Shown in pieces: positions 26,701-42,463 of a DNA stretch of 64,000 nt; within the stretch, counting starts at the first letter, position 1; every line of letters begins with the position of its first letter. Location: positions 3,753 through 67,752 of the forward strand of contig CALWEW010000003.1 of NCBI GenBank assembly GCA_944377415.1, in the 5' to 3' direction. This stretch comes from an uncultured Clostridia bacterium (lineage in GTDB: Bacteria; Bacillota; Clostridia; Christensenellales; UBA1242). Under the pieces are notes generated by a model. It saw nothing but the letters and a program-made list of their open reading frames with translations. It searched no databases and was not told where the DNA came from. The position numbers and the translations under genes are program-made.

Positions 26701-26806
26701 TGCAGAGCGTAATGAATTTGTTGTGTACTTAAATAATGTTACTCCTGTTGATAAACAAGAAAGAGCAGGTGACACGACTAATCCTAACGACATATTTGAT
26801 TACTAA
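11777..26806 (+). CDS. giant (5009 aa) surface lipoprotein with Ig-like (Big_2-type) domains and six GLUG-motif beta-solenoid supermodules
   Basis: Uninterrupted 15 kb ORF. Lipoprotein signal MTKSIKAKYFTFILLFVILAFLGLAGC, with the lipobox Cys at nt 11855-11857. A Big_2-like segment is present (TITATVEGL...IRITARNAGTTVLRVV). There are dozens of GGLxGxxxGxIxN repeats, for example VGGLAGEINGS, IGGLIGYIAGG and VGGLVGYSEGG. No C-terminal anchor. Confidence 0.9.
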   Translation: MTKSIKAKYFTFILLFVILAFLGLAGCGDIYQNLRVTVSTNNVELYLDRTEFDESGVEVDLSTTTITATVEGLSGDMISDVDFWYRDNNIVNAEVVSVNGNESTIRITARNAGTTVLRVVSRELSTVYSEDITVTVYRDPDSMHFLDQKISVPVGTSLELVTNNLIGFEPARVYPSTATFSLLTPDNELWNDAYGTRILNGVSIQDNVLIVDENAERGIVQIEALMPNGVHCAFNVLIYSNIDESQIHLYSQERRISLDDMFGRNNAEYRILTPRDAGWNASYSSTTVSGVTLSSSTLVLASGVSNGIVQLGITVGDTEYFGYVLIHSKDNADLAQVIPESQRSLSLVDLVGQANFSILDTPSPLWDSSYGTYSLRGVSISNGILNIDSGYGSGVVQIAVNYPDGSTDTMIIMVYGNSTSAIKAATVGEVETLKFAINSDEMNRGSYYVVNDDTLNPNVNIRVTTGNSDVLVASSLDNNYRFTLTSMESGTTTVTVNIDIIDPVTNEIYTTFSRTYNVEVIRIARQVILSGDGLSATADPAEMLLQDYYYNVLGAEVNVMVSPEEARDRSYIIRVVEIDGSTENITAGMNSLNIYVNGRNYVNDQGVTGYNEYIYGERLQNGTSFYVSLDSANNVISHTVKLAIIANTYDPDLPYVQNIVTFTITAGVTEITSSSDIVEVGLGETSEFTLSYLTSAGANVGTPDFEITVANEDIISLTGANYTYTVSGLKEGYTEITFTAASGVTLTLPVYVYIIPLAFYISGDHSYENSNIASDEWNDAEYVNPADNLIDAGVTSVTVKRNNRYYFDLVALPAGITANSLSVSIGTNDANGEYISLSQIDEDYTFSFYARNVTTTPVIITVSFSYRTHVNGVWTTVASTRTLEVNIYNPVTLFYWNGTNNATSTTVQLYDKNSLNINQQNLSTTQLNIYTNTDATVYQNGGSVEWTVDNPDLLSISENGFSATITANLTDYSLSSYTAYVYATINDYGTERTITCRVNIIVPQMVESIEVTNYNDNEGVRLNDLGTQQRTSFTINTRVLPNNAFNSEVGYLLYSAENIDGKIVATEIYTGAESDAVVRFDPTEPNRIIAQNAGYAVIRIYPLDRVNSENVNFDSIYHVDIWVIVEDGEVNPYSIYTAEEFVSIGSSAEALTKNYVLMQTIDLSNYSSYFPLGSEFGSNFSGSLDSYNYSTNGRKMSVLGITLNNSFALTSSEILGGLFGRVSGSINNIDFVFSERSAFNLADITASNLDVHAIKIGLLAGVLDGEVNNVVARMNNFTNTSNMISINGLDNADYAISVGGLAGEINGSASASYVNVAIRTDLGVSTLYLGGLAGIFNGTTIGQAGDEVTSRVRITASRAYIPDSENSRIGGLIGYIAGGNVYGQNVTGQVVATLYDYVGGFAGRNDGTLGYFDTANNTEYRVLSGVKTQGHNYVGGLIGYNTGTVNYARVENYEDTTITGVNQAVVSGNNYVGGLVGYSEGGRVTYSYSIGYISQDFTANGSYNGDVIGAEFVGGLIGYAHNTYITSSFAANCILVNSTNTGTAGGLIGQMQIDAGVDISTSTVWNAYANGYILTDNLDTTKTGELIGVYDVQGGSAYVDTCYAHVVISNFDNSTVYRNLFGTNVSGANVANSYYLADTTESITDIDNITSIGVSHDDMIAQDGGFGSNAYIGWGFGDANSNQAWVIYDPDTMQGVNDDLPLLYDRDRGWLYNQAINNIEISYATLQQDGDLLPTFFNYNDLGTVVVLENIDEVDGEKRLNIHNTGTDTANGLFNINVLPLLDPTQWSLSVTSSNSNIAEVVQDNLNLVDAYIVFKTTGVVNITLQSLLDVSASVTVTINVVGGFNEFDILDENDDSITTSGSNVISIKQGSGALLLQYFETSANYNDSYGIKFSTNDTSYFEFSGYEYTGTSVYIPYTQPNLLGGVAATTDAYPNGLEMRACPYFVLVFSGAKINYSLENYVTPKNFYVNVYYGITQAGFNSTDAQITSGEQHNLILNVVSDNPENVVISNPKVLRDGVELTDYSEVLTVLDRVNGDGTVTQNYLLELDDSLKNLTENRQYQVSVDVSDESGLYGTYVFDIIFTPSPITRIDISHFTYGADSMTNGEVPSNLISPGTRGVLRVEVTPNYSHFDYLLFNSTLEPTSNQRVIMQQMVLQNGSYRTIEANYDSNGALIVQKITGYDVNGNAYFDGTVFVSTLVGTNLTEGYNFTISVTAMRNGESSYVFPPVYTNLVTTFAPHATLTLNSTNGDAVAKGTVANFVLTGELFNSTITLETSYGNGQTGIQYSGFASDIRLTYGVGARETVNETLPFYVGIGANAPNGRITVTVTINSTTATGGQLNPIVLQYTIYIVDFAVESVYAENAENGTLSASVRSYTLLEANWRLVEPSIEDYRTYVGGDETAFNNAFNEMYEKAEAKLKVVNERGNGEGGVWYYNDGNGYFAVQTALSYPDFIISYTQMNNGISYYLIQGKTITTGIPFRLSFTGYYVYNESLGVYEFTLDNELSSVAPENILNSYQHLYEQDFNIDVINDTSEDTPDYIDSAEALRSMTAGVNHMLTSDIILDSWTPIDTAIASLDGNGYVIYLRSFAENTADTQNYGLFSTLQEGTVLKNLIIDVSHNIYVNLQNASTVNFGFIAGVNDGGVIYNCDVVVTESKEGWRTIYNSPDGNRPASNNSDFAFATSVFNRIMNDTSAEYNTLASTFILTDLSTSARTVTTYIGGLVGQNNGYITNSRVGRIDTDNALGFNRGYALQGLNIFASGNVGGLAGQNTGVISNSYFANGTVVNYGMSIYTATNRNGARTGGLVAEQTNTGRIESSYAIGQLGENAQAELGGIIAYGTIGGLVHSNAGSITNSYTNLPLSSSNAMGGFVYENTGNASINYCYSMSLINSTGLINGVFIGVDAEGTVQNGEDATVENSFYYSSDNTVNDSSDPATAISANEWGNALGSAFEGFAISDNENSTWYMDVNRLYLGPQLTFADKVYYSHRGLDYTYDASSARGSETNPIIIASLKNWQNVFNYSDTSGLIRSEFMTANPDYTSGGARYQFGTDTMHYYVALASDINFGNSMHSTATDTLFKGILLGNGYTLAGLSYRQSSTVTTAENDFGVFNQLVNASVTNLNLEVSGEITTRARHMGVLAGSVHDSYVENVNISGSTASTSITGLNMTGALAGFVYGNSEIRNITASISVNSISATVSSGLYLYYNDSETTHYADYSYAGGVIGVVDLSDEEGAENNPRIQNLSVSGNTDIYGEIAGGVVGMIGTTSEAKGLNFILDITDENAPRIRGSNFSGGLVGENRGHIMSSFVGIAVDEQIAEDSAINSTDNAANYIGYTGLFENTEESTAVGGLVGLNIAGSIEYSYSRVAVISSQARIVGGLVGMAINAPNSYDTSSGDVTLSYLRNLSVSPSNIYNYDAIDEMFGYSYSNGSVEVRGDLNFSGTLYQVYTTGAINGGEILGGAVGMMVGAPIYSNYTDALVVAVNNYNASDRTLIDKINDENVYFGGVVGYVGYTMSGTTSVAPFISNREVSGEYTIGTPAQTVRAVTSIAGNSLDAVGNAQAIISVRSTDFLTCATSTVNDPFASFSDTVWLLDSTRVSHRFPVLMSNYSATISEIDSVEDFFNYLSDTNTNSYGRIVTDLTITGDDWNRYILSNNLNSITEGNDYVSGRLEGAVPITVSGQETTRSATITFTNFTTSSGVDVSNTFWSLFGYTEGFRLINVDFVFDFTINMTNHTISNFGVLARESNGSSFENVSVTFTENNSVTVNNLGNIALITGTSQNSSYTNVVVNGTINTISDGFTSSTGSVAIGALFGSGTVSNTIYGTSFGTIGVNYTSNNNYILYIGGLAGTTDGLLSVRSVSAANQYNLTTNISITANSNTNIMYVGGVVGRTNGATQLTTLRIDGTLNVTRTNATSTQNSNSYIGGIAGSLYNTNVSDVTSNVEIASNIAGGNVYLGGLAGNLINNHEFTGTNSSMQFSGYVTNGANFTGSISHTADSNLDIYAGGIYGFVQNRLNMSSSTALPVGQARLILNAMHSSGSITVNTAAVRIYGGGLIGRAAQGVMNSGTYEELSAPNNILRISSSAFTGSLDVTNNQSSSESSMWLGGIVGNSQLAVYDSLSNGTIFFNAENALSLFAGGIAGSTNTDIGYCIALSSVQYDMPSTSANTSVNAIRGIQDNENARIVYSYYSGELCGILDLFGTNLTAMQMLDATNFRNNNTNILTNFTYATRTDADGNTVQASFMYPTEVEAYLDLTSGSANVPVFVENMSMLQGQLLNEETPNKIIYINTEQIDVAGIPNIEIANARKIVGNGVVISVADTTTSGRSSSGVFVDIPRNVVVSGINVEYAKVLINASSDFDFGGLAGNNFGSIYGVSVRGVASESIQNTTASGFANLTSRYTDNFTGLTNNDDAQIFLNTSGQYAINFGGVVGLNRGSIVGVLSDINIYSNGGSVSLGGIAGSSINSVMNNNMTQGRIIVDSMTNETFIGGIAGVATNSFISSTFANNNITVFTVVSGNVGLAFGSFSGLSSGIVVNSDVSGNLSIGDTNSYYTNALTTSQYLTASSINSIINNTANYFNSSIWTIGDNTQNYGYPYLNVLNVDFATGDGTQANPYKLREGSEFIRLTQNTASGRYFTLTRDVMISTDTLSLTSSGTLRATEFNGGGYVAVIEGLITPQSSGGTVYASLFNNISNRSTVQSFGVVINESAIINENGTGYTIYFGGLAGTNNGTITNCAVQSLGNITLNSLPNSRLGGLVGQNTNIIENSWADVDFVANDGFIGGLVGLLGTNTSADSESTAVIRNSFASGDLNITQNTANSNYTSTAVGGLVGVANAESGTGSIRDSYVYGAKINVSYRDTEISYVGALIGNAIKFSTYRTYAYVFTPSAQDTNYAGAGVYTDLAMTGNVIEGAFDSTSWVSVWLGPYVDVPVRQEANDLCAVINISTLRTTAIGTGVYSEWITSAWTRNPGVAERNEFVVYLNNVTPVDKQERAGDTTNPNDIFDY

Positions 26807-26961: not shown

Positions 26962-28182
26962 CTAAACCTGCCTTATTACTTCGGCAAATGTTTGACTCTC
27001 ATCGTAAAATTCTGGCTTGCCTTGAATGTAATTCTCCCTAATTAGTTTTATGTGGCAGTTGCATAATTTATCCAGAATATCTAAATAATCCCTTAATTTT
27101 TCATCAGTACAATTTGTATAGCCCGAACAAATTATACTTAAACTTCCATTGTTTGTATTCCTACTGTAAGCAAATAAGCGTTTAAGTTGTTGCAAAATTT
27201 CGTCATCATAAGATTTAGCAGGACAACGGTCAGACAATAAATCACGCAAGTTTGTCATAAGAGTAGTAATATCGTCAATTATTAATACAACATTATTGCC
27301 TAATTCGCATATACGCTTAATTCTGTCAAGAATAATTTCAAAATAAAAATTAATGTCAGCAGGTAAGGTATCAAAAGTTGTAAAGAAGTACTCACAGTTT
27401 TTAAGTAAGATTTTTTCTTCGGGGCGCTTACAAACAGAAAAGTAGACAACTTTGTACCTTTCATCTAAATCTTTTGCTATACTGTTGCATAAGTAAGTTT
27501 GTCCTGCACCGTTTTCACCGACTATCATTAAACGCTGACCAATTTTAAATGGACAAACCTTATTTATAAATTTTAGTTGAGGCAGAGTAAATTCTATTGT
27601 GTTACTTATTGGAGAAATTTCCATTTGAGCAAAGTCTTGACGAGTAAGTGTTGGGGGACAATCGTTAATTTCGTAAATTTCAAGCACGCGCGGGGTTCTT
27701 TCTTGGAAGTGTATACCGCACTTGATTTTATCACCATTTCGCAAATTTTCAAAGTGTAGTGTGTTTTCTTCAATAATAGCGTAAACATTTATATCCAGGC
27801 TTTGAGAACTTGTAGGGAAGAAATACAAAGTGTCGCCAATGTATTTTACAAAACCCGTGTAAATATTTTCACGCACTTCTTTTAATTTGCTGCCTTCGGT
27901 CGAGTATAATGCGCCTGTTGTTTTCGAAAATGCCTCAAAGCCAACAAGTTTATTCCATTCACTGTCAGGAATAATTTCTTTTTTGTGAGGTCTGCCACTT
28001 TTAATTTTTAAATAAGGCTCAACTTTTCCTGTAACAACATCAACTATTGCTTGGCGCAATTCCTCCGCTTTTAATGCAGTAGGGTTTCGCACGCCTATTT
28101 TAGAGCCTACTTCTCGTAGTTGGTATAAATTTAGTGTTCTTAATTTTTCAATATCAACTCTGTATTTATCGTTTTTGTTCAT
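26962..28182 (-). CDS. Rho-like protein (Rho_N, OB/RNA-binding-like and RecA-like domains) with degenerate ATPase motifs
   Basis: Collinear similarity to E. coli Rho, aligned from memory. N-terminal helix bundle: LNLYQLREVGSKIGV..P.ALKAEELRQAIV. OB region: ENLRNGDKIKCGIHFQERTPRVLEIYEIND versus [32 protein letters not shown]. P-loop position: GQRLMIVGENGAGQT versus GQRGLIVAPPKAGKT. Also VVLIIDDITTL versus VIILLDSITRL, and GSLSIICSG versus GSLTIIATA. Confidence 0.7.
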   Translation of the reverse strand: MNKNDKYRVDIEKLRTLNLYQLREVGSKIGVRNPTALKAEELRQAIVDVVTGKVEPYLKIKSGRPHKKEIIPDSEWNKLVGFEAFSKTTGALYSTEGSKLKEVRENIYTGFVKYIGDTLYFFPTSSQSLDINVYAIIEENTLHFENLRNGDKIKCGIHFQERTPRVLEIYEINDCPPTLTRQDFAQMEISPISNTIEFTLPQLKFINKVCPFKIGQRLMIVGENGAGQTYLCNSIAKDLDERYKVVYFSVCKRPEEKILLKNCEYFFTTFDTLPADINFYFEIILDRIKRICELGNNVVLIIDDITTLMTNLRDLLSDRCPAKSYDDEILQQLKRLFAYSRNTNNGSLSIICSGYTNCTDEKLRDYLDILDKLCNCHIKLIRENYIQGKPEFYDESQTFAEVIRQV

Positions 28183-28465
28183 AATTTCCTCTTTTGTTTA
28201 GAAATATTTTATCATATTACACACAAAAAGTAAAATATTTTCTTGATTTTTGTGAATGTCGTACAAAAAAGTACAAAAATAATAAGAATTTAACATATAT
28301 AATTAAAATATTGTAATACATCTCCTAGCTTTAGTGCAATTCAATTTATATGTAGTTTTTATTTTATGCTAAAATAAAATATAATAGGGAATATTTTTGA
28401 GTGTTTTTAATCCCGATTAAAAAATTTTTAAATAATAATTAACTATATTTAAAACCTTAAAAATA

Positions 28466-28499
28466 AAAGAACATGCGAAATAAAATCACATGTCCTTTT
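28466..28499 (-). terminator. probable terminator after the 2790-aa gene
   Basis: Minus strand reads AAAGGACATG...CATGTTCTTT (one mismatch), followed by a T-rich run, 14 nt after the stop. Confidence 0.4.
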
Positions 28500-28512
28500 A
28501 GATTATAAATTA

Positions 28513-31500
28513 TTAACGAACTTTCATGCGTGTACGCATAATGATGAACATTATAACAAGTCCAACTACAACGACACAAGCAACTACAATTAAAATAATT
28601 GCAGCGGTGTTCAGTGGAACATCAATTGTGAGCCTATTACTTGAAAGCACATTACCACTAGCAGACTGAATTTGTACTATATATGTTCCTGCTTCGTTAT
28701 AATTAAAGTTTTGTGGTTCGACAACGGTACCATTTTCAGCATTAATCGTATATACAATTTGACCGTTTACTACAATATAGCAGTCACCAACACGCTCGTA
28801 AATGCTGGCAGGGTTAATTGTAATTGTAAAGCCTGAAGTACTTGATGACCCCCAATCGCGTGAACAACTGATTGTAGGAATTTCATTGTTTATCCAAAAG
28901 TCGAAAGTATAATTTTGACTTGGGTTATAGCCTGTTCCAGCATATCTAACAGTGATTGAATATCTGCCTACACCGTAGTTATCAGGGTCAATGTATATAG
29001 AGTGAATTGTACTGTTTGTTCCTCGCACTTCGTCAGTAATATCAGTTCCCGAACGAACAACTGAAATAATTTCGTAGCCTGTCATGGCTGTGAATTCATA
29101 ACTTGTCAGTGCTTCATTAGGGGATAGAATTGTAAATTGATAAGTTGAAACCAAATCAGCAGAATTTGTACCAACTACCGAGCGAATTGAGCCGCGCATT
29201 GAAACTGTGTAGACACCAGGTTCTGTAAAGATATAGTGTCCGTCTGTTGCTGCGAGTGTGTACGCCTCATTATTTCTTGTTATGCTTACTTCTAGAGAGT
29301 CATATTCACTCAAATCACCCGAGAAAGTAGTAGGAATGTATAGGTCAACATCATTAGAGAATGTTGCATACTGAATAGGAGCAAGGTCGTTTACATAATA
29401 AACGACTTCATTTAATAGATTTAGGGTAAATTCTGTATAATTTGCACCAAAGTATTGATTTTGGCCTACAGCATCATGGATTCGAATAGTATAAATACCT
29501 GACTGCGTAAGTAAGATATTTCCGCTTGTATAAGTGCCAACTAACACATTGTTGTACCATAATTCGAGGGAATAGAAGTCTGCGTAAGTATTTTCTATGC
29601 CTGCTGTTGTAATACTACTGTCATAGTAGGTGGTTTCCCATGTCAGAGTTGCTGTCGCGTTTTCGGTATCGGTCAGGCGTTTGTAAATGTTTCTAGAATT
29701 TGAAGTAGGGGTTTCGCCGTTAATTCTAAAATTAGTTGCCGATGAAATATTTGAAGTAGGAATACGAGTTACCGCAAAGTATGTGCTAATAACATGAGTT
29801 GTAGTTCCATAAACATTGCAAATTCGTGTGTTTCCGAACTCGTCAACCACACGATAGTTTAATCCTTTATCTCTATTTCTTACAATTTCAATATTTCTAT
29901 CCCAGTCACTATCAGAACTAAGGAAGAAGTATTGAGGCATTGACATATTTGATGTCGTTCCGCCTGTGGTCATAGCATAATTATATGGTACAGAATGTGC
30001 AGTAAGTTGAGTTGTGTTACCTTGTGAATCAAGCTGATATACTCCATACACTGAAACTTCATATGAGCGAATTGTAAATACACGCGTTCCATTTGAGTAC
30101 ACACCCATTGAGTTATAAAGTCTTACGGTGTATACACCTTCTTCACTTACGGTAGTAGGCGAGGTGATTTCTGTTTCTGTGCCGTCAGGACTAACAAGTG
30201 TTACATACGGATTAAATAGAGAGTTTGTTTGAGACCACGAAATCATAACAGGTCTTGATGTAACATCGTTAATTAGTGGTGAGCCCGCAGTATCTGTTAT
30301 TGAAATAGTAGGGAAATGTGTGTAAATCACAAATTCGAAGATTGTTGCGGTGTCTGTATAATTGTCAACTGCGATATGTACAAGATAGTGAATATTTTGT
30401 GTGGCATTGAATGTTAAGTTTGTTACGCCGAGTGACATGTCATCAATAGCCAAATCAAAGTATGGTGAATCGGTTGGCAAATCGCTCACCGTTCCATCTT
30501 GATTTGAGTTCGTGTAGAGCAATGTGTTTGTATCAAGGTCGGTTATGCTTAAATTAATTCGCAGAGCGCTAGACTGATACCTAAACAATACATCATTTGA
30601 AGTGTAAGTATAAAGAGTTCCACCATATTCATATTCCATAGTTCCGCCTGAGTATGTAAGTTCACGAACTACACTTGTGTCAGTTGGATATGAATAGGTA
30701 TAACTTCTACCAAAATTATCTGTAAACTCAAAGCGGTAGGTTACATTGCTAGCAAGCCTAAAAGTGTAACCGTTTATGATTGAATCATCAGTAATATCAC
30801 TTGCGCTGTTAGGTAAAGGCTTTAGATTAGCATCATAAGATTGTAAACTACCATCACGATAAACACGGAAGTCCTCGAGCCATGTTGAAGGAATACTGCG
30901 TGTGTCAGGAAGCCTAATTGTGAATGTATTGTCGTTGTTGACAGTTATCAAACTTAGGAAACTTTCTTCGCTGTCGATAAGTAATGCGCCAGCTGTGTTG
31001 ATATAAATCACGATGTCATTATCGCTGTTTAATCTGCTATGAATTGTAAGTTGAATGCGACAACCTTGAGAATTGGAGTAAGTAAGAGCCGTTTCTTGAA
31101 TGAAGTTATTTATGTTTTGAATGATAGTGTCGATGTTGTTAACTGTTACCCCACTGAATGTAGGTAGGTTGGTAAGCGTGTCATCAGGAGCGTAATAGTA
31201 TGTTTCGCGCTCTTGTTGACCCATAAGGTTGCGAATTGTGAAAGTTGTCCACAAGTCGCTACTTTCAATTAAGTCAAATCTAAAATCGCCACTATTAAAC
31301 TCAATTATATCTTTGTTATTGGGGTAGTACTGCTGGTTGTTATAGTAAACAGTTGTCCCAGAAGCCGTAGTGGTGTAGAAGTCGATGCTGTCGTCATTAA
31401 TTGTAGCATGCATCGTAGAATCTCCACCTGTAACAAAAATTGTGTAAACTCGCATGTTACCTGCGGTGTCTTGTTCAATAATGTCGTAATAACCAGGCTC

Positions 31501-34500
31501 TGTGATTGTTGTACCAGTCGCTTCGTTTATACCTCCACGATAAACGGCAAGGTGGTAGTCAGGGTTAGTGGGTGAGAATATGTTTTCTGCATTTTCGTCA
31601 TAACCAGGTTGACCTTGAACTACTGTTTGTTGTAGGTAATTACCAGTATAATTCTCATGGCGGAAGTAGTAGTATTCAAGGCTCGATTCATACTCATTTA
31701 AGTAGTCAAGTGTAAAGCTTGAAACCGCGAATGCATATGACTTTAAGAAAGTAACATTATCGTTATCTATATTTTCAATTAAATAATCAGTAAAGTTAGT
31801 TCCGCTTGTGTTGAGTGAGTTTAGGTAGACATCGTTTTCAATTAGGTTTACAAGGTTTTGGTAGGGTGATGTGTTGTCTACATAAAGTGATTGTGTTGTT
31901 TCATAATAAATCGACTGATTAGACATGTTCGGTGCATCATAATCATCGGGAGACATTGCGATGTAGTGTACATTTACAGTGTACTCGACATCGACGAGTT
32001 TATTTTGATAAAGTGATGTATTTTCATAGTCTGCACGAGGTAGAAGAATATAATAGTTATATACTCCATCTACGCGCATTTTGTAAAATTCGCTATCGCT
32101 AAGGTTAGTTGATTCGAGCGCTGCATTTATAATAGCATCAAGTTCAGCCTGCGTTTCGCGGTAAATAAATGTTACATTTTCAATTTCGTCAGGGTCGGAA
32201 AGTAGTTCTTCATATTCGTCAGCATCACAGGTAAGTAAAATTGGGTTAGAGAAACTGTAACTTGTAGTTGTACCAGAATTTTCATTTCCGTCTGCATCAA
32301 TTTTGGGATTTGATTTTGTGTAAATTGTTTTGTATACTAGCACATCATTAAAGGCAAGTTGGGCTGTGTATACATCAGTTGGGTCAGACCAACTTATGCG
32401 CACTTTGTCTGCACCAGTTACATTTGATTGAGAAATATCAATGTCTGTAAATGTTGTATCACCACTTTGGAAGTTAAAATCTGGGCTAATTCCTGTGAGT
32501 TCAAAGTTAAATATTGTATAATTTGGTGATAAGTCTATTAAATCATTTCCATATGTGAGTTCCTCAAAATATGTTGCATCGCCATTCATTACACCCGTTG
32601 TGTTTGCTAGGTCAAAGAGAATAACTCGATATTTCCCAACATTTGTAAATGCGTGTTTTAGATTGTCAAGAGGGTAGCAATCGTATGCTTCGCTTGCATT
32701 GTTTCTATATATATTAGAATAGAAACGCTGGTTATAGAAAGTGTAAATTCCTGTGTTTGAGCGTATAAATGTTTGCACAACTACTTGAACTCGCGAACTA
32801 TTTTGATAAGCATCGAAGATTTCATTTAGCAAAGTTGCGGCTTGACTTTCGTCAATTTCATCGCCAACAGGATAGTAATATTTGTCGTAAACACTGTTAC
32901 CGTTATCGGCTGCCCAAGTGCTTAAGTTTATACTTGCGGGTAAAATGTTACTATCAATCACCATGTTAGTTGGTTCACTAGCTGGGTCATTGGTCGCATC
33001 AAATGTTAATACATCACGGAAGATATCACTATTTGATGTACGACTAAATTGATTAAATGTAACTCCACCATAATCAGGATAACCTTCATACTCGCCCTTG
33101 TCATAACCAAAGCCTATTGAAATATCACTTCCGTAGTTGCTTGTATCGGTAGGAATAATAGGGTTGCGGTCAAGGTAGTAAGTGTAAGTTCTTACCAAAG
33201 TATCGCCACCTGCTTCTGCCGAATTTTCGTCAAAACCGTCGTGATATGTTCTAATGATTTCGTACATACCTGCCGAACTTGCAGCTCCGCCGTACGACTG
33301 AACATAGTCAAGAGGCACTAGTACACTAGTTTGGTAGTGAGTAGATGTAACGCTTCCGCTTGCTTCGACAGTAAATATTTGATAGTCAGACTCGCCGTCG
33401 CTATCATAAATAACTGTATCTTCATAAGAGTCAGAGTAGGGGTAGTTTTCGTTATCTTTATTATACGAGAAAGGATAGAAGCGAAGGACTATGCTGTCTA
33501 TTGTAAAGTATTCGTCTGCGACAGTCCAACTAAAAGTTACATAACGGCGATTTGTCGAGTATGTGTTTGGTACGACTTGACTGTCAGTAACTTCGTCTTC
33601 TGTACGAATGCTTTCAACTAATACAGGACCATCTGCGTTAGGTTCAAACGAGTCATAACTGCGTAAAGTACCTTGTGAGCGGTCAAGATTTACATCAACG
33701 GTAAAATTACCATTGTAATTGCGCATTTCATCATACACACGAATTGTATAACTTAGCGAATTGCTGTTGGCAAATTCGTGAATAGGGTGATTTAAATTAT
33801 CTACTACACCTTCTGGGCGAATTTGTGTTTGATGCGTGTCAGTTGAATCTGGTTTTGGGTCAACTGAAATAGTTCCCCACCAGTTTTTAGGAGTTCCGTC
33901 CGTGTCGATGTATGGTGTTATCGTTTCTGTTGTGCCATCTGAGATAGAGAACTCAACGCTATCAATAGGGGTAATATAATTATTTGCACTAATTGCAGAG
34001 TTTAGGGCATTTTTAACAATCTCATCTGCTGTGAAAGTGTTATTTGAAAGTGTCCATGTGTAGTCGCCGTTTACGAAGTCCAAAATGTCATTAATTTGAT
34101 TATCGGTAGATGATAGTTGATTAATAGAAATTGATTTGTGTGTGCCCCAGTAGAAGTCTGTGTCGTCGGTAATAATATTTACATATGAAGTTTGTTCTGG
34201 GTCTTGCAAAATTTGTGTTTCTGTGTCATCTAAAATCGTTATGAAAATCGCTGTGTTGCCCGCAGCATCGGTGAGAAGTAGCACTGCAAATTGAGGACTT
34301 GATATAATTTGTGAGGTGGGTAGGTTTGTGAATACATCAGTTATATCAACTTTATTGTAATTTATTGCGGGAGTAAAACCTCCAAAGGAAGAATCTGTGG
34401 GCATCAACACATTTTGATTTGAAGCCGCCATGCTTTTCATTTGTTCGATATAACTACTGTCTAATGAGAAGCTTCCATCTGTCTGAATACTTGAGTAAAC

Positions 34501-36885
34501 ATATCGAGCGGTGATTTCAGCTCCACTTGCTTTGTCGTCCCAAGTCCATGCAAACGGGGTGTTAGTTGCAAGAACATAATCGCTAGCGTTATCTGTAAGG
34601 CGAGATATTACAATTGCATCTCCGTTTTCGTCCGCGGCAACATGTCTACCTTCAATTTCAACTGCTGTTATGTTTGTAATAGGGGCAGTATCAATAACAA
34701 AATGATGGTTTACAAACGCTTCGGGAGAGTCTTCTCTAAAAACCTGAATGTAGTAGTTGCCGTCAAGTCCAGAGCGTCCATTTACACTTAAATTAGTACC
34801 ATAGAGCATTGTCGGTGTGCCGTTTGTAACATCAAAATAATCGCCAACACTATTTTGCTGGTAAACAAGGGCATTTATGTCGCCTTGACCGATTAGATTA
34901 TTACTCCAATCATAAGCATAATATCTTGCAGTAATTTCAGCATCAAAGGGGCCGACATTTTTCCATGAAACATAAACGAAGTCGTTTGTATAGTCGTTCA
35001 TGTTTAGTGCAGTTGCCGATGCATCTTTAATTCCAGGGTAGTCAGAAGTTGTCTTTGCACTAATTTCTATTTGTGGGGTATCATTAGTAATTTCGAAGTA
35101 GAATATTTGATGTGCATACTGATAAGTCATGCCGTCATTTGCATGACCTGATTCATAAATTATGTTCTCATAAGTTAAGTAAACGAGATATGTACCTGCA
35201 TTTTGGAATTGAAGGTTACGAGTGTAATTAGACACCGTAATATTGCCTAAAGTGTCTCGGTAAGCATACCAACTTACATTTGTTGCTTGAAGCCTACCGT
35301 AAAACTCAAAACTTACGGGAGGCATGTTAGTACTAGCATGAATTACTTTTGTTGAGTTTAAGTTGAATACTCCGCCTTCGCTTTTATCCAGAAAGAGATT
35401 TTCAATAACTCCAGTTGCACTAACATCGGTTGATGTCAAGCTGTCATTAGTAATTACGCTGTTATTTTCACTAGCGTTGGTATTTAAAAAGCTGAAATCT
35501 GCAGTGTAAATACTTTCAGGTGGGGTTGGGTCGCTAGCAGAAATTGTAGTGATTTCTGTGTTGCTTGTCAAAAAGTCATGAGCGTAAACAACACTTGGAG
35601 TAGTCGATGGGACAGTACTCATAGAATTATAAGCATAAGTATTGTCATAAAGTGATGCGGTTGTTGAGCGTGAATCTGCGTAATTCGCAGTATAACCATT
35701 TATTACAAGTCTTTCACTTTTTAATAGGTCTTCATTTGATGTTACAACTTCGCCGCTGGCAAGAGCATAAGTCGCAACTCCGTTGTTGTCTGACGGGTTT
35801 CCAGTACGCAAACGCGCAGTTTTGTTTATTACATATTCACCTGCTTCATCAAATTGAACTCGTAAAGTGTAATGGTCATTATTACCTTTTTCAATACGAT
35901 ATGTGCGAGAGTTTGAAAGACCTGTGTTTGTTGAAGTTGTTACAATCAATTCACCATATTCGCCACTGCCAGAGTCACGGGCAGTGAAATTAAGTTCTAC
36001 GGTTTCAACATAATTATAAAGAGTGCGAGTGTAGGTAATTTGATACTTTTCAGGATTGTAATATAGTTGGGGATAATATAATTCACCTTTTGTAGAGCGG
36101 GTGATTAGGCTCAAATTTTCATCGTAAATAGTTGTGTATTCGTTGTTGTAGTTAAAGTAGTGGAGCATACCATACTCTTGATTAGACAAAGTAAATTTCT
36201 CGGTGTCGTTAAGTGATGGCATTTCAAGAGGAACAGAATAGGTCTTTTGAGTGGTTAGGTAAAAGGTGAAAGTAAAGTTGTATTGTTGACCTGTTTCTCT
36301 ATCCATGTACGGAATTTCGATGTCATATCTGCCTTCGGGGTCAGAAACTTCGGTATCAACTCCCGTATCGTAGCGGGTGATGTAGTCGCTGTTTAGATTG
36401 TCTTCTGCGACTTCGTCAGGTGTAAGCCCGTGAAGATAAAGGATAGTTTCAAGAGTGTCGCCATCTTCGTTTATATAGTTGTCTTGAATTAACTGACCAT
36501 TAAATCTAACATTTACATTTGTAAAGTATAAACCACTTGCGTTGTTTGGACCTCCAAAGTAAATATAAATAGCCTCTCTGCCGACTTGCTCGATACCTTC
36601 TTCATCTTGAAGTGTTGCTTGCTCGGTGTTTAACATGACAAATTGTCCGTTTTCAATGCTTTCTGCGGAACTAACAATGTGCCTAATTTCTGTAGGGCTA
36701 TATTCTCCATCATCAGCGTAAGCATCAGGTAAAAAAACCTTTTCAATATACACTGTTGGAGTAGAAACGGCACTAGCACTTTTTTGTTTTGCAAGTAAGG
36801 ATACACCGAGCATGCTAAAAGCCAGCAAGGCAATAATACTTACCACAGCTAAAACTGTGTAGTTTCCGAATTTCCTATTATTCAT
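28513..36885 (-). CDS. giant (2790 aa) envelope protein: N-terminal signal/anchor, about 2700 aa of Ig/PKD-like beta-sandwich repeats, C-terminal TM helix with a basic tail
   Basis: Uninterrupted 8.4 kb ORF with a GGGGGA ribosome-binding site. N-terminal hydrophobic segment YTVLAVVSIIALLAFSMLGVSLLA followed by SASA. The motif GxYxhxhxDxxGN recurs, for example PGYYDIIEQDTAGN, LLLTDAAGNTAIF, GIYTIRIHDAVGQ, EGVYTVRLYNSMG and AGTYIVQIQSASGN. The C-terminus is VPLNTAAIILIVVACVVVVGLVIMFIIMRTRMKVR. Confidence 0.9.
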   Translation of the reverse strand: MNNRKFGNYTVLAVVSIIALLAFSMLGVSLLAKQKSASAVSTPTVYIEKVFLPDAYADDGEYSPTEIRHIVSSAESIENGQFVMLNTEQATLQDEEGIEQVGREAIYIYFGGPNNASGLYFTNVNVRFNGQLIQDNYINEDGDTLETILYLHGLTPDEVAEDNLNSDYITRYDTGVDTEVSDPEGRYDIEIPYMDRETGQQYNFTFTFYLTTQKTYSVPLEMPSLNDTEKFTLSNQEYGMLHYFNYNNEYTTIYDENLSLITRSTKGELYYPQLYYNPEKYQITYTRTLYNYVETVELNFTARDSGSGEYGELIVTTSTNTGLSNSRTYRIEKGNNDHYTLRVQFDEAGEYVINKTARLRTGNPSDNNGVATYALASGEVVTSNEDLLKSERLVINGYTANYADSRSTTASLYDNTYAYNSMSTVPSTTPSVVYAHDFLTSNTEITTISASDPTPPESIYTADFSFLNTNASENNSVITNDSLTSTDVSATGVIENLFLDKSEGGVFNLNSTKVIHASTNMPPVSFEFYGRLQATNVSWYAYRDTLGNITVSNYTRNLQFQNAGTYLVYLTYENIIYESGHANDGMTYQYAHQIFYFEITNDTPQIEISAKTTSDYPGIKDASATALNMNDYTNDFVYVSWKNVGPFDAEITARYYAYDWSNNLIGQGDINALVYQQNSVGDYFDVTNGTPTMLYGTNLSVNGRSGLDGNYYIQVFREDSPEAFVNHHFVIDTAPITNITAVEIEGRHVAADENGDAIVISRLTDNASDYVLATNTPFAWTWDDKASGAEITARYVYSSIQTDGSFSLDSSYIEQMKSMAASNQNVLMPTDSSFGGFTPAINYNKVDITDVFTNLPTSQIISSPQFAVLLLTDAAGNTAIFITILDDTETQILQDPEQTSYVNIITDDTDFYWGTHKSISINQLSSTDNQINDILDFVNGDYTWTLSNNTFTADEIVKNALNSAISANNYITPIDSVEFSISDGTTETITPYIDTDGTPKNWWGTISVDPKPDSTDTHQTQIRPEGVVDNLNHPIHEFANSNSLSYTIRVYDEMRNYNGNFTVDVNLDRSQGTLRSYDSFEPNADGPVLVESIRTEDEVTDSQVVPNTYSTNRRYVTFSWTVADEYFTIDSIVLRFYPFSYNKDNENYPYSDSYEDTVIYDSDGESDYQIFTVEASGSVTSTHYQTSVLVPLDYVQSYGGAASSAGMYEIIRTYHDGFDENSAEAGGDTLVRTYTYYLDRNPIIPTDTSNYGSDISIGFGYDKGEYEGYPDYGGVTFNQFSRTSNSDIFRDVLTFDATNDPASEPTNMVIDSNILPASINLSTWAADNGNSVYDKYYYPVGDEIDESQAATLLNEIFDAYQNSSRVQVVVQTFIRSNTGIYTFYNQRFYSNIYRNNASEAYDCYPLDNLKHAFTNVGKYRVILFDLANTTGVMNGDATYFEELTYGNDLIDLSPNYTIFNFELTGISPDFNFQSGDTTFTDIDISQSNVTGADKVRISWSDPTDVYTAQLAFNDVLVYKTIYTKSNPKIDADGNENSGTTTSYSFSNPILLTCDADEYEELLSDPDEIENVTFIYRETQAELDAIINAALESTNLSDSEFYKMRVDGVYNYYILLPRADYENTSLYQNKLVDVEYTVNVHYIAMSPDDYDAPNMSNQSIYYETTQSLYVDNTSPYQNLVNLIENDVYLNSLNTSGTNFTDYLIENIDNDNVTFLKSYAFAVSSFTLDYLNEYESSLEYYYFRHENYTGNYLQQTVVQGQPGYDENAENIFSPTNPDYHLAVYRGGINEATGTTITEPGYYDIIEQDTAGNMRVYTIFVTGGDSTMHATINDDSIDFYTTTASGTTVYYNNQQYYPNNKDIIEFNSGDFRFDLIESSDLWTTFTIRNLMGQQERETYYYAPDDTLTNLPTFSGVTVNNIDTIIQNINNFIQETALTYSNSQGCRIQLTIHSRLNSDNDIVIYINTAGALLIDSEESFLSLITVNNDNTFTIRLPDTRSIPSTWLEDFRVYRDGSLQSYDANLKPLPNSASDITDDSIINGYTFRLASNVTYRFEFTDNFGRSYTYSYPTDTSVVRELTYSGGTMEYEYGGTLYTYTSNDVLFRYQSSALRINLSITDLDTNTLLYTNSNQDGTVSDLPTDSPYFDLAIDDMSLGVTNLTFNATQNIHYLVHIAVDNYTDTATIFEFVIYTHFPTISITDTAGSPLINDVTSRPVMISWSQTNSLFNPYVTLVSPDGTETEITSPTTVSEEGVYTVRLYNSMGVYSNGTRVFTIRSYEVSVYGVYQLDSQGNTTQLTAHSVPYNYAMTTGGTTSNMSMPQYFFLSSDSDWDRNIEIVRNRDKGLNYRVVDEFGNTRICNVYGTTTHVISTYFAVTRIPTSNISSATNFRINGETPTSNSRNIYKRLTDTENATATLTWETTYYDSSITTAGIENTYADFYSLELWYNNVLVGTYTSGNILLTQSGIYTIRIHDAVGQNQYFGANYTEFTLNLLNEVVYYVNDLAPIQYATFSNDVDLYIPTTFSGDLSEYDSLEVSITRNNEAYTLAATDGHYIFTEPGVYTVSMRGSIRSVVGTNSADLVSTYQFTILSPNEALTSYEFTAMTGYEIISVVRSGTDITDEVRGTNSTIHSIYIDPDNYGVGRYSITVRYAGTGYNPSQNYTFDFWINNEIPTISCSRDWGSSSTSGFTITINPASIYERVGDCYIVVNGQIVYTINAENGTVVEPQNFNYNEAGTYIVQIQSASGNVLSSNRLTIDVPLNTAAIILIVVACVVVVGLVIMFIIMRTRMKVR

Positions 36886-37046
36886 AAAAAGTCCCCCTTT
36901 TTTATGCCCGTAAAAATCACAATTTAATTACTAAATAATTTTATCAAATTGCCGTAGAAAACACAAATAAAATGATATAATTTGACAATTTTTTTAGATA
37001 AAAATCGCATTATGACTATTTTTTGTTTTTTTGTCGAAAAAATACA

Positions 37047-37072
37047 CAAAAAAGCGGGGTAACCGCTTTTTT
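37047..37072 (-). terminator. rho-independent terminator after the coupling-protein gene
   Basis: AAAAGCGG-GGTA-ACCGCTTTT hairpin (37050-37070) flanked by A and T runs, abutting the stop at 37071-37073. Confidence 0.6.
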
Positions 37073-39035
37073 AAAAGTTAAAGTTGTTATTGCTTAAAAC
37101 AAGTTTGTTTCGCTGTCTAATGTCATAGTAAATCTGGTCTTCGTTTATGAAGCGAGGAATAACATAATCATCATTCATAGGCTTCATATTATAAACATTG
37201 CTAACTTTGTATGCGAATGTAAATTCACTTTTTAAGGCTTTTTCCTTAAACATTGACACAATCATTTCACCTTTCTTTAAGTAGCCGAGTTCGTCAGGTG
37301 TAATGAGTGCACGACTGACACGCTGAACATTAGTCGACTTTGTTGTGTCTTGTTTTGACTTGCTTTCACTTGTTGATTTTGCTTCGACACTCGTTTGTCC
37401 GCATCGAGCGCTAAATTCTTCTTTTGTTTTTTGGTCTTCTGTACCTAAGTATACATGTACATTACAGTTTGATTTGATAACATCTGCCGCTGCTTCACCA
37501 TATTTGATTTCGACCTGTCTGTAACTTTGTACGACGAGCATGAGCGCGATTCCACGGCTACGACCGACAGTTACAATACTTTCAAATCTAGGAATTTTTG
37601 GCATGTTTGCAAACTCGTCAAGAATAAAATAAACATGGCGAGGAAGTTCTAGTTTCGGCGTTCGACTTGCGACTTCAACAAGGGTTTTGTACATTTGCAA
37701 TACGCACATTTGTGCTATAGGGTGGCGCGTTTCTTTTTCGTCGGGAACCTTGATAAATAGCGCTGTTGGTTTGTCTGCAAAGTGTTCAAAATCAATTTCG
37801 TCTGCACTAGTAGCAAAACATACACCGCTATCAGCAAATACATTAACAGCATTTGATACCATACCAAAGTAAGAGCGAGTTGTACCAGGTGCATTGTTTA
37901 CAATAGGACCTGCAAGGGTAGTTGCGTTTGACATGGGTCCACGCCCTTCAAAATATTTTTGCAGTGAGCCAAATTGTCTGTCGGGGTCGGCATCGCGCAC
38001 ATTACATATCTTATATAAATTAAAGAAATTATATTTCTCTGCTGTCATATTAAGACGCGGGTCGGCGGAGTCTTCGAGCATGGCTAGCATAGTGCCTAGG
38101 ATAAAGTCCTTTGCGCCTTGTTGCCAGCTTGCATCATTAGTACCCTCTGATACAGGACTTAGGGACATCGCAATGTCATTTAGGTCTTCAAACGCCGAGT
38201 CAATTAGACCTTTTCTCGTGGCGGTTAACTGGCTTTCTATTGAGTCGCGGTTCGGAAAAGCGACTCCCTCAAACTCGTACCACTCGTTATCATACACTGG
38301 GGAAATGACACGAAGTCCACAGTCAGCGGGGTTTTCGTTGCGGTGGACAATTACTTCTTTTCTCAGATTTAGCGCGCGTTGATAGTTTTTATAAGGTTTG
38401 TACATCGGGTTCCAGCGCGTACTTGAATACGGATTTCGCAGGTCAAAAGTAACTAGGGTGTAGCCCTCGTCTTTTAACTTGTTGCCGTGCATATTATATA
38501 ATTCACCCTTAACGTCCATGATTACCAAACTTGGTTTTGTTGAGGTGCTTGCCAAAATTTGAATAGTAGGGGAAATATAACCAGCAGTTTTACCACTACC
38601 AGTAGTACCTACAATCATAGTGTGCCAAACTTCGTGTAGAAGATTTACCTTTACATTGTTTCCAACCGCTTGCGCGCGAATAGGCACACCGTCTTTGTGA
38701 CTATGAAGGTCGCGAAAAAAACAACCATCGTACTTTTTATTAAGTTCTTGTTCTGTAAGCCATTCAGAATCGAAAAACTGCTCCGTTGGCTTTTTACCGT
38801 CTTTTTTCTTTTTATCTGATGACTTAAACATAGATTTGCCATTTGCTGCTTGCACTAAAATGTAAAGAATGAAGGCAACCATTATTAGAGCCCAAATACC
38901 CCACGAATAACCGCCCATAATTCCTTCAACAGTAATTGAGCCTGTTTCTAAAAATGAGCCGATTATACACGATATGCCGTAACCCAAAATAGCAACGACA
39001 ACAAAAGCCCAGAAATACTTCCAAAACTTATTCAT
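37071..39035 (-). CDS. type IV coupling protein (VirD4/TraG family ATPase)
   Basis: Two N-terminal TM helices. Walker A GTTGSGKT (nt 38586-38609). Walker B region YFILDEFANMPKIP. The segment GRSRGIALMLVVQSYRQVEIKYG is typical of TraG/VirD4. Confidence 0.85.
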   Translation of the reverse strand: MNKFWKYFWAFVVVAILGYGISCIIGSFLETGSITVEGIMGGYSWGIWALIMVAFILYILVQAANGKSMFKSSDKKKKDGKKPTEQFFDSEWLTEQELNKKYDGCFFRDLHSHKDGVPIRAQAVGNNVKVNLLHEVWHTMIVGTTGSGKTAGYISPTIQILASTSTKPSLVIMDVKGELYNMHGNKLKDEGYTLVTFDLRNPYSSTRWNPMYKPYKNYQRALNLRKEVIVHRNENPADCGLRVISPVYDNEWYEFEGVAFPNRDSIESQLTATRKGLIDSAFEDLNDIAMSLSPVSEGTNDASWQQGAKDFILGTMLAMLEDSADPRLNMTAEKYNFFNLYKICNVRDADPDRQFGSLQKYFEGRGPMSNATTLAGPIVNNAPGTTRSYFGMVSNAVNVFADSGVCFATSADEIDFEHFADKPTALFIKVPDEKETRHPIAQMCVLQMYKTLVEVASRTPKLELPRHVYFILDEFANMPKIPRFESIVTVGRSRGIALMLVVQSYRQVEIKYGEAAADVIKSNCNVHVYLGTEDQKTKEEFSARCGQTSVEAKSTSESKSKQDTTKSTNVQRVSRALITPDELGYLKKGEMIVSMFKEKALKSEFTFAYKVSNVYNMKPMNDDYVIPRFINEDQIYYDIRQRNKLVLSNNNFNF

Positions 39036-39427
39036 AATACCTCCGATTTTTTAAACTTTTTTAAAGTGAAGAATAAAGGCGAAATTAAGTTAATGGGTAA
39101 ATTTTTGTAAAAAATTACCGAAAAACAGGTGGTAATTTTCGATAAATTTTTACTCAATTTAGATTATTTTTGGCAAAAACTTTAAAAAAATTTAAAATTT
39201 CTTAAAAATTGTACTTAATTAATTTGCTTTTGTCAAATTTATTTGGTAATATATTTTCATAAATTTGTGTTTGCTTGATTTTTTGGCAGTTGTAATTGCG
39301 TATTTGAGCCTTAATAATATGTAATTAATTATACGCATAATTTTGAATTTCAAGCAAAACATAATTTAAAAGTTTTAGTTTAAGGCAATTCTAAAACAAA
39401 TCAAAAAATATCGGAGGTATTTGATTA

Positions 39428-39817
39428 ATGAGTGCACTCATGTTTCAAGCGGCCAACGCTATTATGAACTCTGCTGCAGGCTTCCCTTTGTTAGCTGATG
39501 GTTCAGACCCTACAACACCTGACATTAATTCAGGACAATGGGCTTGGGTAGGTGAAATTGTTGATGCAATTAACACAATTCTTTATCCTTTGCTAATTCT
39601 TCTTGCTACAGCAGGTGTGATTTACGCCATAATTTTGGGTGTAAAATTAGCGCGTGCCGAAAGTGCGGACCAGCAACAGGAGGCAAAAAAGCGTTTGGTA
39701 AACTTTATTATTGGTCTTGTTGCGGTAATTGCGTTGATACTTCTCATGAAGTTGGTATGTACTTATCTTCCTGAATGGGTACCTAGCCTTTACATTGACA
39801 CTTCAACAGGTAACTAA
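39428..39817 (+). CDS. small two-helix membrane protein, VirB2/TrbC-pilin-like topology
   Basis: 129 aa with a GGAGG ribosome-binding site. A possible signal peptide ends at ...FPLLA/DGS. Two hydrophobic helices (ILYPLLILLATAGVIYAIILGV and LVNFIIGLVAVIALILLMKLV) are separated by a charged loop, KLARAESADQQQEAKKR. It is the first gene of the T4SS arm. Confidence 0.5.
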   Translation: MSALMFQAANAIMNSAAGFPLLADGSDPTTPDINSGQWAWVGEIVDAINTILYPLLILLATAGVIYAIILGVKLARAESADQQQEAKKRLVNFIIGLVAVIALILLMKLVCTYLPEWVPSLYIDTSTGN

Positions 39818-39835
39818 TAGGCTAGTAATTTATAA

Positions 39836-39893
39836 TGAAAAGTTGATAGTAATGATAGTAGTGTTTATATGCTATCGACTATCAACTTTTTTA
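39836..39893 (+). terminator. probable terminator/attenuator after the pilin-like gene
   Basis: AGTTGATAGT...ACTATCAACT forms a 10-bp outer stem and TGATAG/CTATCG an inner helix, followed by TTTTTT. Confidence 0.45.
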
Positions 39894-39894
39894 T

Positions 39895-40085
39895 GTCTAG
39901 CGCAGCATCTACTTCGTCGTTCGGTTATTTTCGACCGCTTACGGTGCGTGTGCGCACTCCAAATAGAGAGGAAACACACTCGCCGAAGGCGTATCGGCAT
40001 GGGCGGACGACCGCCCCGCCCGAAAAAACCTACACTTCTCGTATCTGCCGCACTTCCACAAAAAATAAATAGCAAGATACGCAAA
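39895..40085 (+). other. GC-rich structured non-coding segment (candidate leader or sRNA)
   Basis: I count 72 G+C in the 120 nt from 39901 to 40020 (60%), within otherwise AT-rich spacers. Local hairpins are GGGCGG-ACGA-CCGCCC, CGCC-GAA-GGCG and GTGCG-TGTG-CGCAC. Only implausible overlapping ORFs occur, on both strands. Confidence 0.3.
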
Positions 40086-40122
40086 AATTAGTAGAGACAA
40101 AAAATAAAAGGAGTTTACAGAT

Positions 40123-42102: not shown

Positions 42103-42134
42103 ACTAAATATCATTTGCGTAAACGCCGTTCGTA

Positions 42135-42318
42135 AATTAGCAATTAGCAATTAGCAGTCAAGGACAAAATTTCCAGCCACTCATACTGTTTTAATGTATT
42201 TCATATAAGGAAATTTTTAATTACCTAAAATTTAGTTAGTGCTATACTATGATACTTTTTGTGTAGTATTAATAAAAGTAGACCGCACGCAGTGCGCCGA
42301 AATTGCTAATTGCTAATT
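42135..42318. repeat. 18-bp perfect inverted repeat built from the tandem heptad ATTAGCA, arms 148 nt apart
   Basis: AATTAGCAATTAGCAATT at 42135-42152 is the exact reverse complement of 42301-42318. The left arm carries three perfect ATTAGCA heptads (42136-42156) and the right arm carries two. Confidence 0.8.
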
Positions 42319-42390
42319 ATTTTGCAAAAATATTAGAGTGCGCTATTTTTGCAAAATTTCACATTTATTTCACATAGATGCAAAAATCGT

Positions 42391-42419: not shown

Positions 42420-42463
42420 TAGGCAAAATATTATAAAAAGTCTTAAAAACAGGAGGAACGAGA

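Follow-up and report, generated by a model that had tools for sequence, protein, structure and literature searches.

A giant, predicted membrane-anchored surface protein encoded within a type IV secretion cluster of an uncultured Clostridia bacterium

The window analysed here is a 64,000-nucleotide stretch of DNA from an uncultured Clostridia bacterium (contig CALWEW010000003.1), and its subject is a gene for a giant protein of 2790 amino acids (aa). Our preferred reading of this protein, with a probability of about 0.68, is that of a Sec-exported fibre that is anchored in the membrane with type I topology and probably acts as a contact adhesin. Under this reading the protein would be exported by the Sec pathway and its signal peptide removed, and the C-terminal helix would be kept in the membrane as a permanent anchor (N-terminus out, C-terminus in) instead of being removed by a sortase, with P-L-N-T capping the 22-23-residue helix at the outer membrane face. 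The ectodomain would cross the wall as a fibre carrying its N-terminal domains at the tip, and would mediate cell-cell or cell-surface contact for the adjoining type IV apparatus, while helix and tail would contact a partner in the membrane or cytoplasm, beyond acting as a mere hydrophobic plug. The parts of the gene are as follows (the slash marks the predicted cleavage site; Ig, immunoglobulin; ORF, open reading frame).

28513..36885, minus strand: giant surface protein gene; intact ORF and translation, 2790 aa, with the stop codon at 28513-28515
36769..36885, minus strand: predicted signal peptide, residues 1-39 (MNNRK, hydrophobic core, SASA/V); sequence, orthologue alignment and model
28621..36768, minus strand: ectodomain, residues 40-2755, predicted beta-rich, with tandem Ig-like modules at least C-terminally; AlphaFold2 models and Foldseek
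28606..28620, minus strand: juxtamembrane motif V-P-L-N-T, residues 2756-2760, family consensus [E/D]-P-L-N-[T/A/S]; alignments
28537..28605, minus strand: predicted transmembrane helix, residues 2761-2783 (AAIILIVVACVVVVGLVIMFIIM); AlphaFold2 helix and family conservation
28516..28536, minus strand: predicted cytoplasmic tail R-T-R-M-K-V-R-COOH, residues 2784-2790; family consensus

Signal peptide, C-terminal module and protein family

The N-terminus reads MNNRK, a hydrophobic stretch of about 27 residues, and KQKSASA/VSTP. Small residues stand at positions −3 and −1 of the predicted cleavage site, at the same place, in all 16 full-length orthologues of the alignment, and residues 5-33 are helical in the structure model of the N-terminal part. 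A preliminary description of this DNA had pointed to an N-terminal signal or anchor segment with an SASA-type context, and the A-x-A-like site kept in all 16 orthologues bears this out. We infer that the signal peptide is cleaved at this site.

The C-terminus reads TIDVPLNTAAIILIVVACVVVVGLVIMFIIMRTRMKVR followed by the stop codon, that is, a short motif, a hydrophobic stretch and a basic tail. This tripartite layout, described before as differing from LPXTG, proved to be real and conserved with fixed length; the quoted string is made of 36 residues (7+22+7), not of 41 as given there. In the AlphaFold2 model a single terminal helix runs from T2760 to R2786 (model residues 561-587), beginning at the T of the motif. 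When the 2757 windows of the orthologue alignment are ordered by conservation, the final 34 aa come 26th, and second if only non-overlapping windows are counted; P, L, N, T, A, I, I, L, I, V, F, R and V of the C-terminus are invariant in the 16 orthologues.

For the wider family, a C-terminal logo was prepared from 141 of 151 representatives sharing no more than 50% identity with one another, and in these 141 the P is located exactly 34 residues from the C-terminus. The residue before it is E in 72% and D in 13%, and P (99%), L (96%) and N (98%) are almost constant. The position that follows P-L-N is T in 60%, A in 21%, S in 8%, V in 4% and F in 4%, and the one after it is hypervariable (V, W, A, I, T, M). 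The start of the helix is again well kept (A 77% or S 18%, I 96%, I 77% or V 17%, any residue, I 100%), as is its end (F 67%, I 72%, any residue, L 78%). The tail reads R (100%), any residue, K/R (88%), M (84%), K/R (98%), V/I (91%) and R/K (97%), and then the protein ends. Charge is distributed asymmetrically across the helix, with E or D before it and K or R making up four of the last seven residues.

Few parts of the giant protein, or of the family, are as conserved as the C-terminal module. What the family retains is E-P-L-N, a single face of the helix and a cytoplasmic heptapeptide of specific sequence; P-x-T-G/A is not among the conserved elements. Since the conservation rank is high and the fixed length recurs in 141 of the 151 representatives, the layout is not a product of chance. 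Helix and tail appear to be under strong purifying selection, and, because they are conserved sequence-specifically, their contact with a partner in the membrane or under it, in the cytoplasm, is suggested. The predicted features of a type I single-pass protein are all present, namely a signal with conserved A-x-A, one terminal helix and a positive cytoplasmic side. Of the two possibilities raised in the preliminary description, that of a plain type I membrane-anchored fibre thus agrees with the signal, the helix from T2760 to R2786, the charge asymmetry and the conserved helix and tail.

Anchors of this kind have precedents. The giant proteins Ebh and Embp of staphylococci and the 'hydrophobic tail' protein ActA of Listeria have a single C-terminal membrane helix and a basic end instead of LPXTG. 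They share with the giant protein a Sec signal, a very long ectodomain made of repeats and one C-terminal helix with a basic cytoplasmic end, but differ from it in that no sequence similarity was found through Pfam, NCBIfam or PDB, and in that the repeats of the giant protein are Ig-like beta-sandwiches. To our knowledge, a sharply conserved anchor module such as EPLN...RxKMKVR has not been described for Ebh, Embp or ActA.

The 16 full-length orthologues, 40-62% identical to the giant protein, were obtained by a word-indexed search of a collection of 5.8 billion proteins; the best match there is 62% identical, and the protein itself is not in the collection. A genome scan gave 13 loci, the closest being L002 (77% identity), all of them from gut metagenome-assembled genomes labelled uncultured Clostridia or Christensenella except for one Alistipes. 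GCA_964315415.1, CAKVLR01 and CAZOFH01 are examples of genomes with the gene. These identities suggest that the DNA comes from a species of this clade not sampled so far. The exceptional locus, L011 (CAVEBU010000008.1), is labelled Alistipes finegoldii, yet carries Clostridia-type giant and Rho-like genes, and is probably mis-binned or mislabelled.

For the extent of the family, an exhaustive search was made using a profile of the last 206 aa, with matches clustered at 50% identity. At least 502 clusters were found at E <= 1e-3, and 436 at E <= 1e-10. Among the 150 members listed, the profile ends at the very last residue of the protein in nearly all; full-length members among them are 2400-3900 aa long, and about a third are shorter, presumably representing gene fragments. 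The only named member is "hypothetical protein [Clostridiales bacterium]". A shorter, 40-column profile of the C-terminus gave no match at E <= 10 against the index of 5.8 billion proteins, its own family included, and is uninformative, the null result probably being due to composition filters acting on the hydrophobic query. The family is large and unannotated, and consists of giant surface proteins from uncultured gut Clostridia and Christensenella-like genomes. It can be searched for by its signature, [E/D]-P-L-N, 24 mostly hydrophobic residues and then R-x-K/R-M-K/R-V/I-R/K at the C-terminus.

The ectodomain and its Ig-like modules

Fold modelling covered the first approximately 620 aa and residues 2200-2790, with the middle of about 1580 aa lying outside both models. 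For residues 2200-2790, AlphaFold2 given the orthologue alignment produced a model with a mean pLDDT of 80.7, in which about six beta-sandwich modules of approximately 90-100 aa each make up the last 560 aa or so. When this model was compared with PDB by Foldseek, the matches were tandem Ig-like proteins (GhpA, Sap, EA1, neurofascin and cadherins; E down to 6e-12), with identities of 8-12% and global TM-scores of 0.11-0.16, indicating likeness at the level of modules only. The first 620 residues were modelled as beta-rich at a pLDDT of 69. An Ig-repeat architecture is supported by the model at the C-terminal end and is plausible for the remainder of the protein. The earlier proposal of about 2700 aa of beta-sandwich modules therefore holds for the last 560 aa or so, where the model is Ig-like, and more weakly for the first 620 aa or so. 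Modelling, suggested there for single modules and carried out on these two terminal parts, gave an Ig-like fold for residues 2200-2790 and a beta-rich part without a fold match at the N-terminus.

No domain of the giant protein was recognised by Pfam or NCBIfam, and a PDB sequence search detected no similar chain. The sole Pfam line at E <= 1 was InlK_D3, with E = 0.11, and no PKD or HYR match was obtained in support of the PKD/HYR-like nature proposed at first. The signature GxYxhxhxDxxGN, which had been taken to mark the modules, has no exact occurrence in the protein, but its two halves are each enriched: G.Y.h.h was observed 13 times against 3.1 expected, and D..GN six times against 1.07 expected. 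An assignment to PKD (PF00801/PF18911) or HYR (PF02494) was rejected on these grounds, namely the lack of a profile match and the absence of the full signature.

Strings of Ig-like modules are also present in the GhpA grappling hook of Aureispira (9flw, 9flp, 9fly), in Sap and EA1 of Bacillus anthracis and in cadherins (Foldseek E between 6e-12 and 1e-7). This likeness is generic and at module level only, and the secretion route and the anchoring of these proteins are different. Kinship with GhpA was considered from the fold matches and from the neighbouring giant protein, which like GhpA is 5009 aa long; it was rejected as a coincidence combined with generic Ig-like folds, since PDB contains no chain similar in sequence.

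The type IV secretion cluster and the probable role of the fibre

The genes and sites around the giant gene are as follows.

37009..37037, minus strand: promoter-like site upstream of the giant gene, just past the virD4 hairpin; consensus match only
37047-37073, minus strand: terminator-like hairpin ending virD4; consensus match only
37071..39035, minus strand: VirD4/TraG-type coupling protein, directly upstream of the giant gene; Pfam T4SS-DNA_transf (5.8e-51), TraG-D_C and TrwB_AAD_bind
39428-39817, plus strand: pilin-like protein, 129 aa; Pfam T4SS_pilin, NCBIfam NF045849 (Mbov_0395 pilin-like)
40123-42102, plus strand: lipoprotein, 659 aa; conserved gene order
42464-44920, plus strand: VirB6-like protein, 818 aa; NCBIfam NF045848 (MMCAP2_0566)
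45181-47913, plus strand: VirB4-like protein, 910 aa; Pfam P-loop_TraG/AAA_10
48055-51441, plus strand: ORF of 1128 aa after VirB4; no Pfam match, and a weak NCBIfam match to SufT (E = 0.0026) far below cut-off
28464..28500, minus strand: terminator-like hairpin and T-run directly after the stop codon of the giant gene; one found against 0.1 expected in shuffles
26962..28182, minus strand: Rho-like P-loop ATPase, 406 aa, directly downstream of the giant gene; NCBIfam Rho at 84.6 bits against a cut-off of 315, Pfam ATP-synt_ab
11777..26806, plus strand: second giant protein, 5009 aa, with a lipoprotein signal (LGLAGC); Pfam GLUG motifs only

In the close loci, the giant gene is encoded within a type IV secretion system (T4SS) cluster, which is not the case for the most distant members. 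Fourteen loci were counted as close (the 13 genome loci and L001), with giant proteins 39-77% identical. The order VirB4-like, VirB6-like, 659-aa lipoprotein, pilin-like, VirD4, giant protein, Rho-like ATPase and 5009-aa lipoprotein is conserved in them, the part from VirB4 to the giant gene being judged in the 10 loci whose fetched sequence reaches those genes. In 11 of the 14 loci the gene immediately upstream of the giant one encodes VirD4; in L005, L009 and L014 the sequence stops short on that side. The Rho-like ATPase gene follows directly downstream in 13 of the 14 (L003 is truncated), and the 5009-aa lipoprotein, for which a sequence search detected no PDB relatives, stands beside it in 12; at this place L011 has a different giant protein of 2566 aa with Big_2. 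The arrangement of VirD4 upstream and Rho-like ATPase downstream persists in the more distant L018, L019 and L030, of which L018 and L019 encode members about 27-34% identical to the giant protein, and L019 has both VirD4 and pilin-like genes. In L025, L027 and L031 the Rho-like gene alone is found downstream. The distant Rho-like genes (L018, L019, L025, L027 and L031) are convergent and only 20-25% identical. The Rho-like protein may act in the transcription of very long genes, as a factor, or may power the apparatus as its ATPase.

Neither relaxase nor integrase was detected by Pfam among the ORFs of at least 150 aa in the window, and no cell-wall hydrolase was detected in the T4SS cluster at 37071-51441. 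The best family matches of the cluster are proteins of Mollicutes integrative and conjugative elements (NF045849, NF045848 and NF045889), and the cluster may represent a domesticated, non-conjugative system. The second half of the 1128-aa ORF is acidic and of low complexity.

To make cell contact, type IV systems of Gram-positive bacteria rely on adhesins at the surface (bioRxiv 10.1101/2025.01.22.634366). The cluster contains a pilin-like protein and no other adhesin, and the giant gene follows virD4; taken together with this dependence, a role of the giant protein in contact or adhesion is most likely. The recurrent linkage to VirD4 and the Rho-like ATPase, joined in the closest relatives by a T4SS cluster without detectable relaxase and by the 5009-aa lipoprotein, points to an unstudied contact apparatus in abundant gut anaerobes.

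Large surface proteins of other Gram-positive systems offer a comparison. PrgB (aggregation substance) of pCF10 and CnaC of pCW3 are sortase-anchored by LPXTG and are borne by plasmids with relaxases. As with the giant protein, they are large surface proteins whose genes adjoin those for VirD4, VirB4 and VirB6-like components of a monoderm T4SS, presumably for contact. The giant protein differs in being helix-anchored and non-homologous, and in belonging to a chromosomal cluster without detectable relaxase or integrase. Membership among the PrgB/aggregation-substance adhesins (MPF_FATA), judged by homology together with LPXTG, was not found, the giant protein having neither a Pfam or NCBIfam match nor an LPXTG sequence.

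Several observations weigh against a contact role for the type IV apparatus. It is the gene neighbourhood only from which this role is read, and Foldseek comparison of the N-terminal 620 aa with the fold library gave no significant match and thus no recognisable binding fold at the tip. The giant gene is probably its own transcription unit, because a promoter-like site follows the virD4 hairpin and a strong terminator-like hairpin follows its own stop. In L011 the position of VirD4 is taken by a GDSL lipase, and L015 and L017, the most distant members examined, have housekeeping neighbours with no T4SS gene within 10 kb.

These same observations favour an alternative with the same anchoring and no link to type IV secretion, in which the protein would be a general fibre of the envelope or of colonisation (an adhesin for host, particle or partner microbe, or a structural surface layer) and its adjacency to virD4 would be historical. 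The location of distant members among housekeeping genes without T4SS genes, the lack of VirD4 upstream in L011, the promoter-like and terminator-like sites belonging to the giant gene itself, and the presence of S-layer proteins among the Foldseek matches are all in line with it. However, VirD4 and the giant protein stay paired in 11 of 14 close loci (39-77% identity) and also in L018 and L019 (about 27-34%), and gene order would seldom outlast such divergence without selection. We consider this alternative rather unlikely, though one to be taken seriously.

A bolder extension of the contact adhesin reading concerns the anchor itself. EPLN-helix-RxKMKVR might be a docking device that binds VirD4 or the Rho-like hexameric ATPase through its invariant helix face and cytoplasmic heptapeptide, thereby coupling the fibre, perhaps about 100 nm long if its middle is also modular, to the chromosomal T4SS without detectable relaxase for cell-cell contact. 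This is a speculative proposal to which we give a small chance. If true, it would reveal the link between type IV systems of Gram-positive bacteria and their adhesins, and the fibre would be a Gram-positive counterpart of the conjugative pilus or a contact sensor, serving contact rather than plasmid transfer.

The flanks of the window are chromosomal, with genes for an oxidoreductase, AcnX, SpoVT, a PP-loop ATPase, Ppx, MreB, a MinD-like protein, an M50 peptidase and Lgt. The idea of a classical mobile element with a tRNA gene as its insertion site was rejected, as the cluster does not include the sole tRNA gene (Leu, 55601-55688) and neither an integrase nor a relaxase was detected. A wall-less, Mollicutes-like host, considered from the match of T4SS parts to Mollicutes element families, was also rejected, since the loci are labelled Clostridia or Christensenella and sporulation and peptidoglycan genes are present (SpoVT and M50 peptidase in the window; MurG, SleB and YpeB in relatives). 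The genes for MreB, a MinD-like ParA ATPase and the M50 peptidase (57781-61172) stand in the order of the mreB-minD-spoIVFB region of Bacillus subtilis, the M50 peptidase being taken as SpoIVFB-like solely from its position after mreB and minD, and a SpoVT-like regulator is encoded at 4704-5222. This gene order and SpoVT indicate the chromosome of a spore-forming or formerly spore-forming member of the Clostridia.

Alternative readings of the C-terminus as a sorting signal

A different fate of the C-terminal helix would follow if the module were a new sorting or processing signal ('EPLN-CTERM'), cut at or in the helix by an enzyme other than a sortase, with release or re-attachment of the fibre; exosortase, rhombosortase, a site-2 protease and a sheddase are candidate enzymes. 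Domains of the PEP-CTERM and GlyGly-CTERM type are composed of a short conserved motif, a helix and an Arg/Lys cluster, and the combination of these three at fixed length in the giant protein resembles them. With PEP-CTERM, GlyGly-CTERM and PGF-CTERM (exosortase, rhombosortase, archaeosortase), the module shares a short signature, a helix and a C-terminal cluster of Arg/Lys, and like them it can be modelled as a domain. Its extreme conservation and the presence of a gene for an M50 intramembrane metalloprotease in the window (60315-61172) are further points in favour. This gene, however, is located 23 kb away in the housekeeping mreB-minD context, and no cognate enzyme was seen among the window ORFs: Pfam detected no sortase, exosortase or rhomboid domain in those of at least 150 aa. 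The curated CTERM sorting models of NCBIfam (PEP-CTERM and others) gave no match to the giant module even at E <= 10, only spurious transmembrane hits being returned. In addition, the module has one carrier per locus, from a single homologous family, whereas known sorting signals are usually common to several unrelated proteins. Processing of this kind appears improbable.

The restriction to one family was seen in two ways. No second ORF with the motif or the tail was found in 493 kb, comprising the window and 19 relevant related loci. When a metagenome collection was scanned for DNA encoding EPLNTxAIIxI, 16 loci were obtained, of which 11 are C-termini of the giant family, in each of which the stretch from the E to the stop measures 35 residues; the remaining five are chance matches and not C-terminal. 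All 11 C-terminal instances in the metagenome scan being of the giant family, the motif is confined to it. The search for other proteins ending in P-L-N-T-A, a transmembrane segment and a basic tail, which the preliminary description had recommended, accordingly gave the giant family only.

Cleavage by a sortase was the other possibility raised there, with LPNTA of a sporulation-associated class of sortase in B. anthracis named as a parallel. The literature bears this parallel out: LPNTA of BasH and BasI is cleaved by B. anthracis SrtC, a class D sortase. In the known motifs LPXTG, LPNTA of BasH/BasI, NPKTG and LPXTA, a single residue separates P from T, and cleavage takes place behind the T. 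A sortase pentapeptide was accordingly defined as having P at position 2, T at position 4 and then G, A, N or S (LPXTG, LPXTA, NPXTN). V-P-L-N-T-A of the giant protein has two residues between P and T (P-x-x-T, not P-x-T) and does not conform to it, and family-wide the T is kept in only 60% with a variable residue next to it. Compared with LPXTG-type signals including LPNTA of BasH/BasI, the giant protein is alike in its N-terminal signal and in the succession of short motif, hydrophobic stretch and basic tail, and the motif in the window also has P, T and A. The signal and this tripartite succession are, at the same time, common to every type I membrane protein. The giant protein differs by P-x-x-T, by the unconserved T and following residue, by the sequence-conserved helix and tail of fixed length, and by the absence of a sortase among the genes found nearby.

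The recommended search for sortase genes was negative in the window and the related loci scanned. The TLxTC signature of sortases was present in no real ORF of the window and 14 loci (385 kb); the only regex match belongs to the Rho-like protein of L008. For LPXTG proteins, the window and the relevant related loci gave matches in spurious ORFs only, and no real one. A literature search for Christensenella or Christensenellales with sortase or type IV secretion returned nothing relevant. The non-canonical sortase substrate is not supported, in view of the P-x-x-T spacing, of T at only 60% and of the lack of a sortase or a second carrier in the loci scanned.

Cleavage of VPLNTA after the T, with covalent linkage of the protein to peptidoglycan as for LPNTA class D substrates, is very improbable: the tripartite layout, the P, T and A in the window's motif with PLNT invariant in 16 close orthologues, the genuine class D motif LPNTA and the sporulation genes of the lineage speak for it, but the spacing is P-x-x-T, the T is replaced by A, S, V, F or I and followed by a hypervariable residue, the helix and tail that a sortase would discard are the parts best conserved and of fixed length, neither the window nor the 19 loci gave a TLxTC signature, a sortase Pfam match or an LPXTG protein, and the motif is on no other protein family. 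A false lead is thereby removed, there being no new sortase motif at VPLNTA, and the permanently membrane-anchored fibre stands as the preferred reading.

One further protein of the window has a C-terminus of related layout. This 339-aa protein (52058-53077, plus strand) contains Listeria-Bacteroides repeats (Flg_new) and has neither the EPLN motif nor the RxKMKVR tail. It ends in a hydrophobic helix and a short basic tail (…IIWIALAFVAVTIIAFSCWLAFARPKMHE), and therefore C-terminal helix anchors of this organism are not limited to the giant protein.

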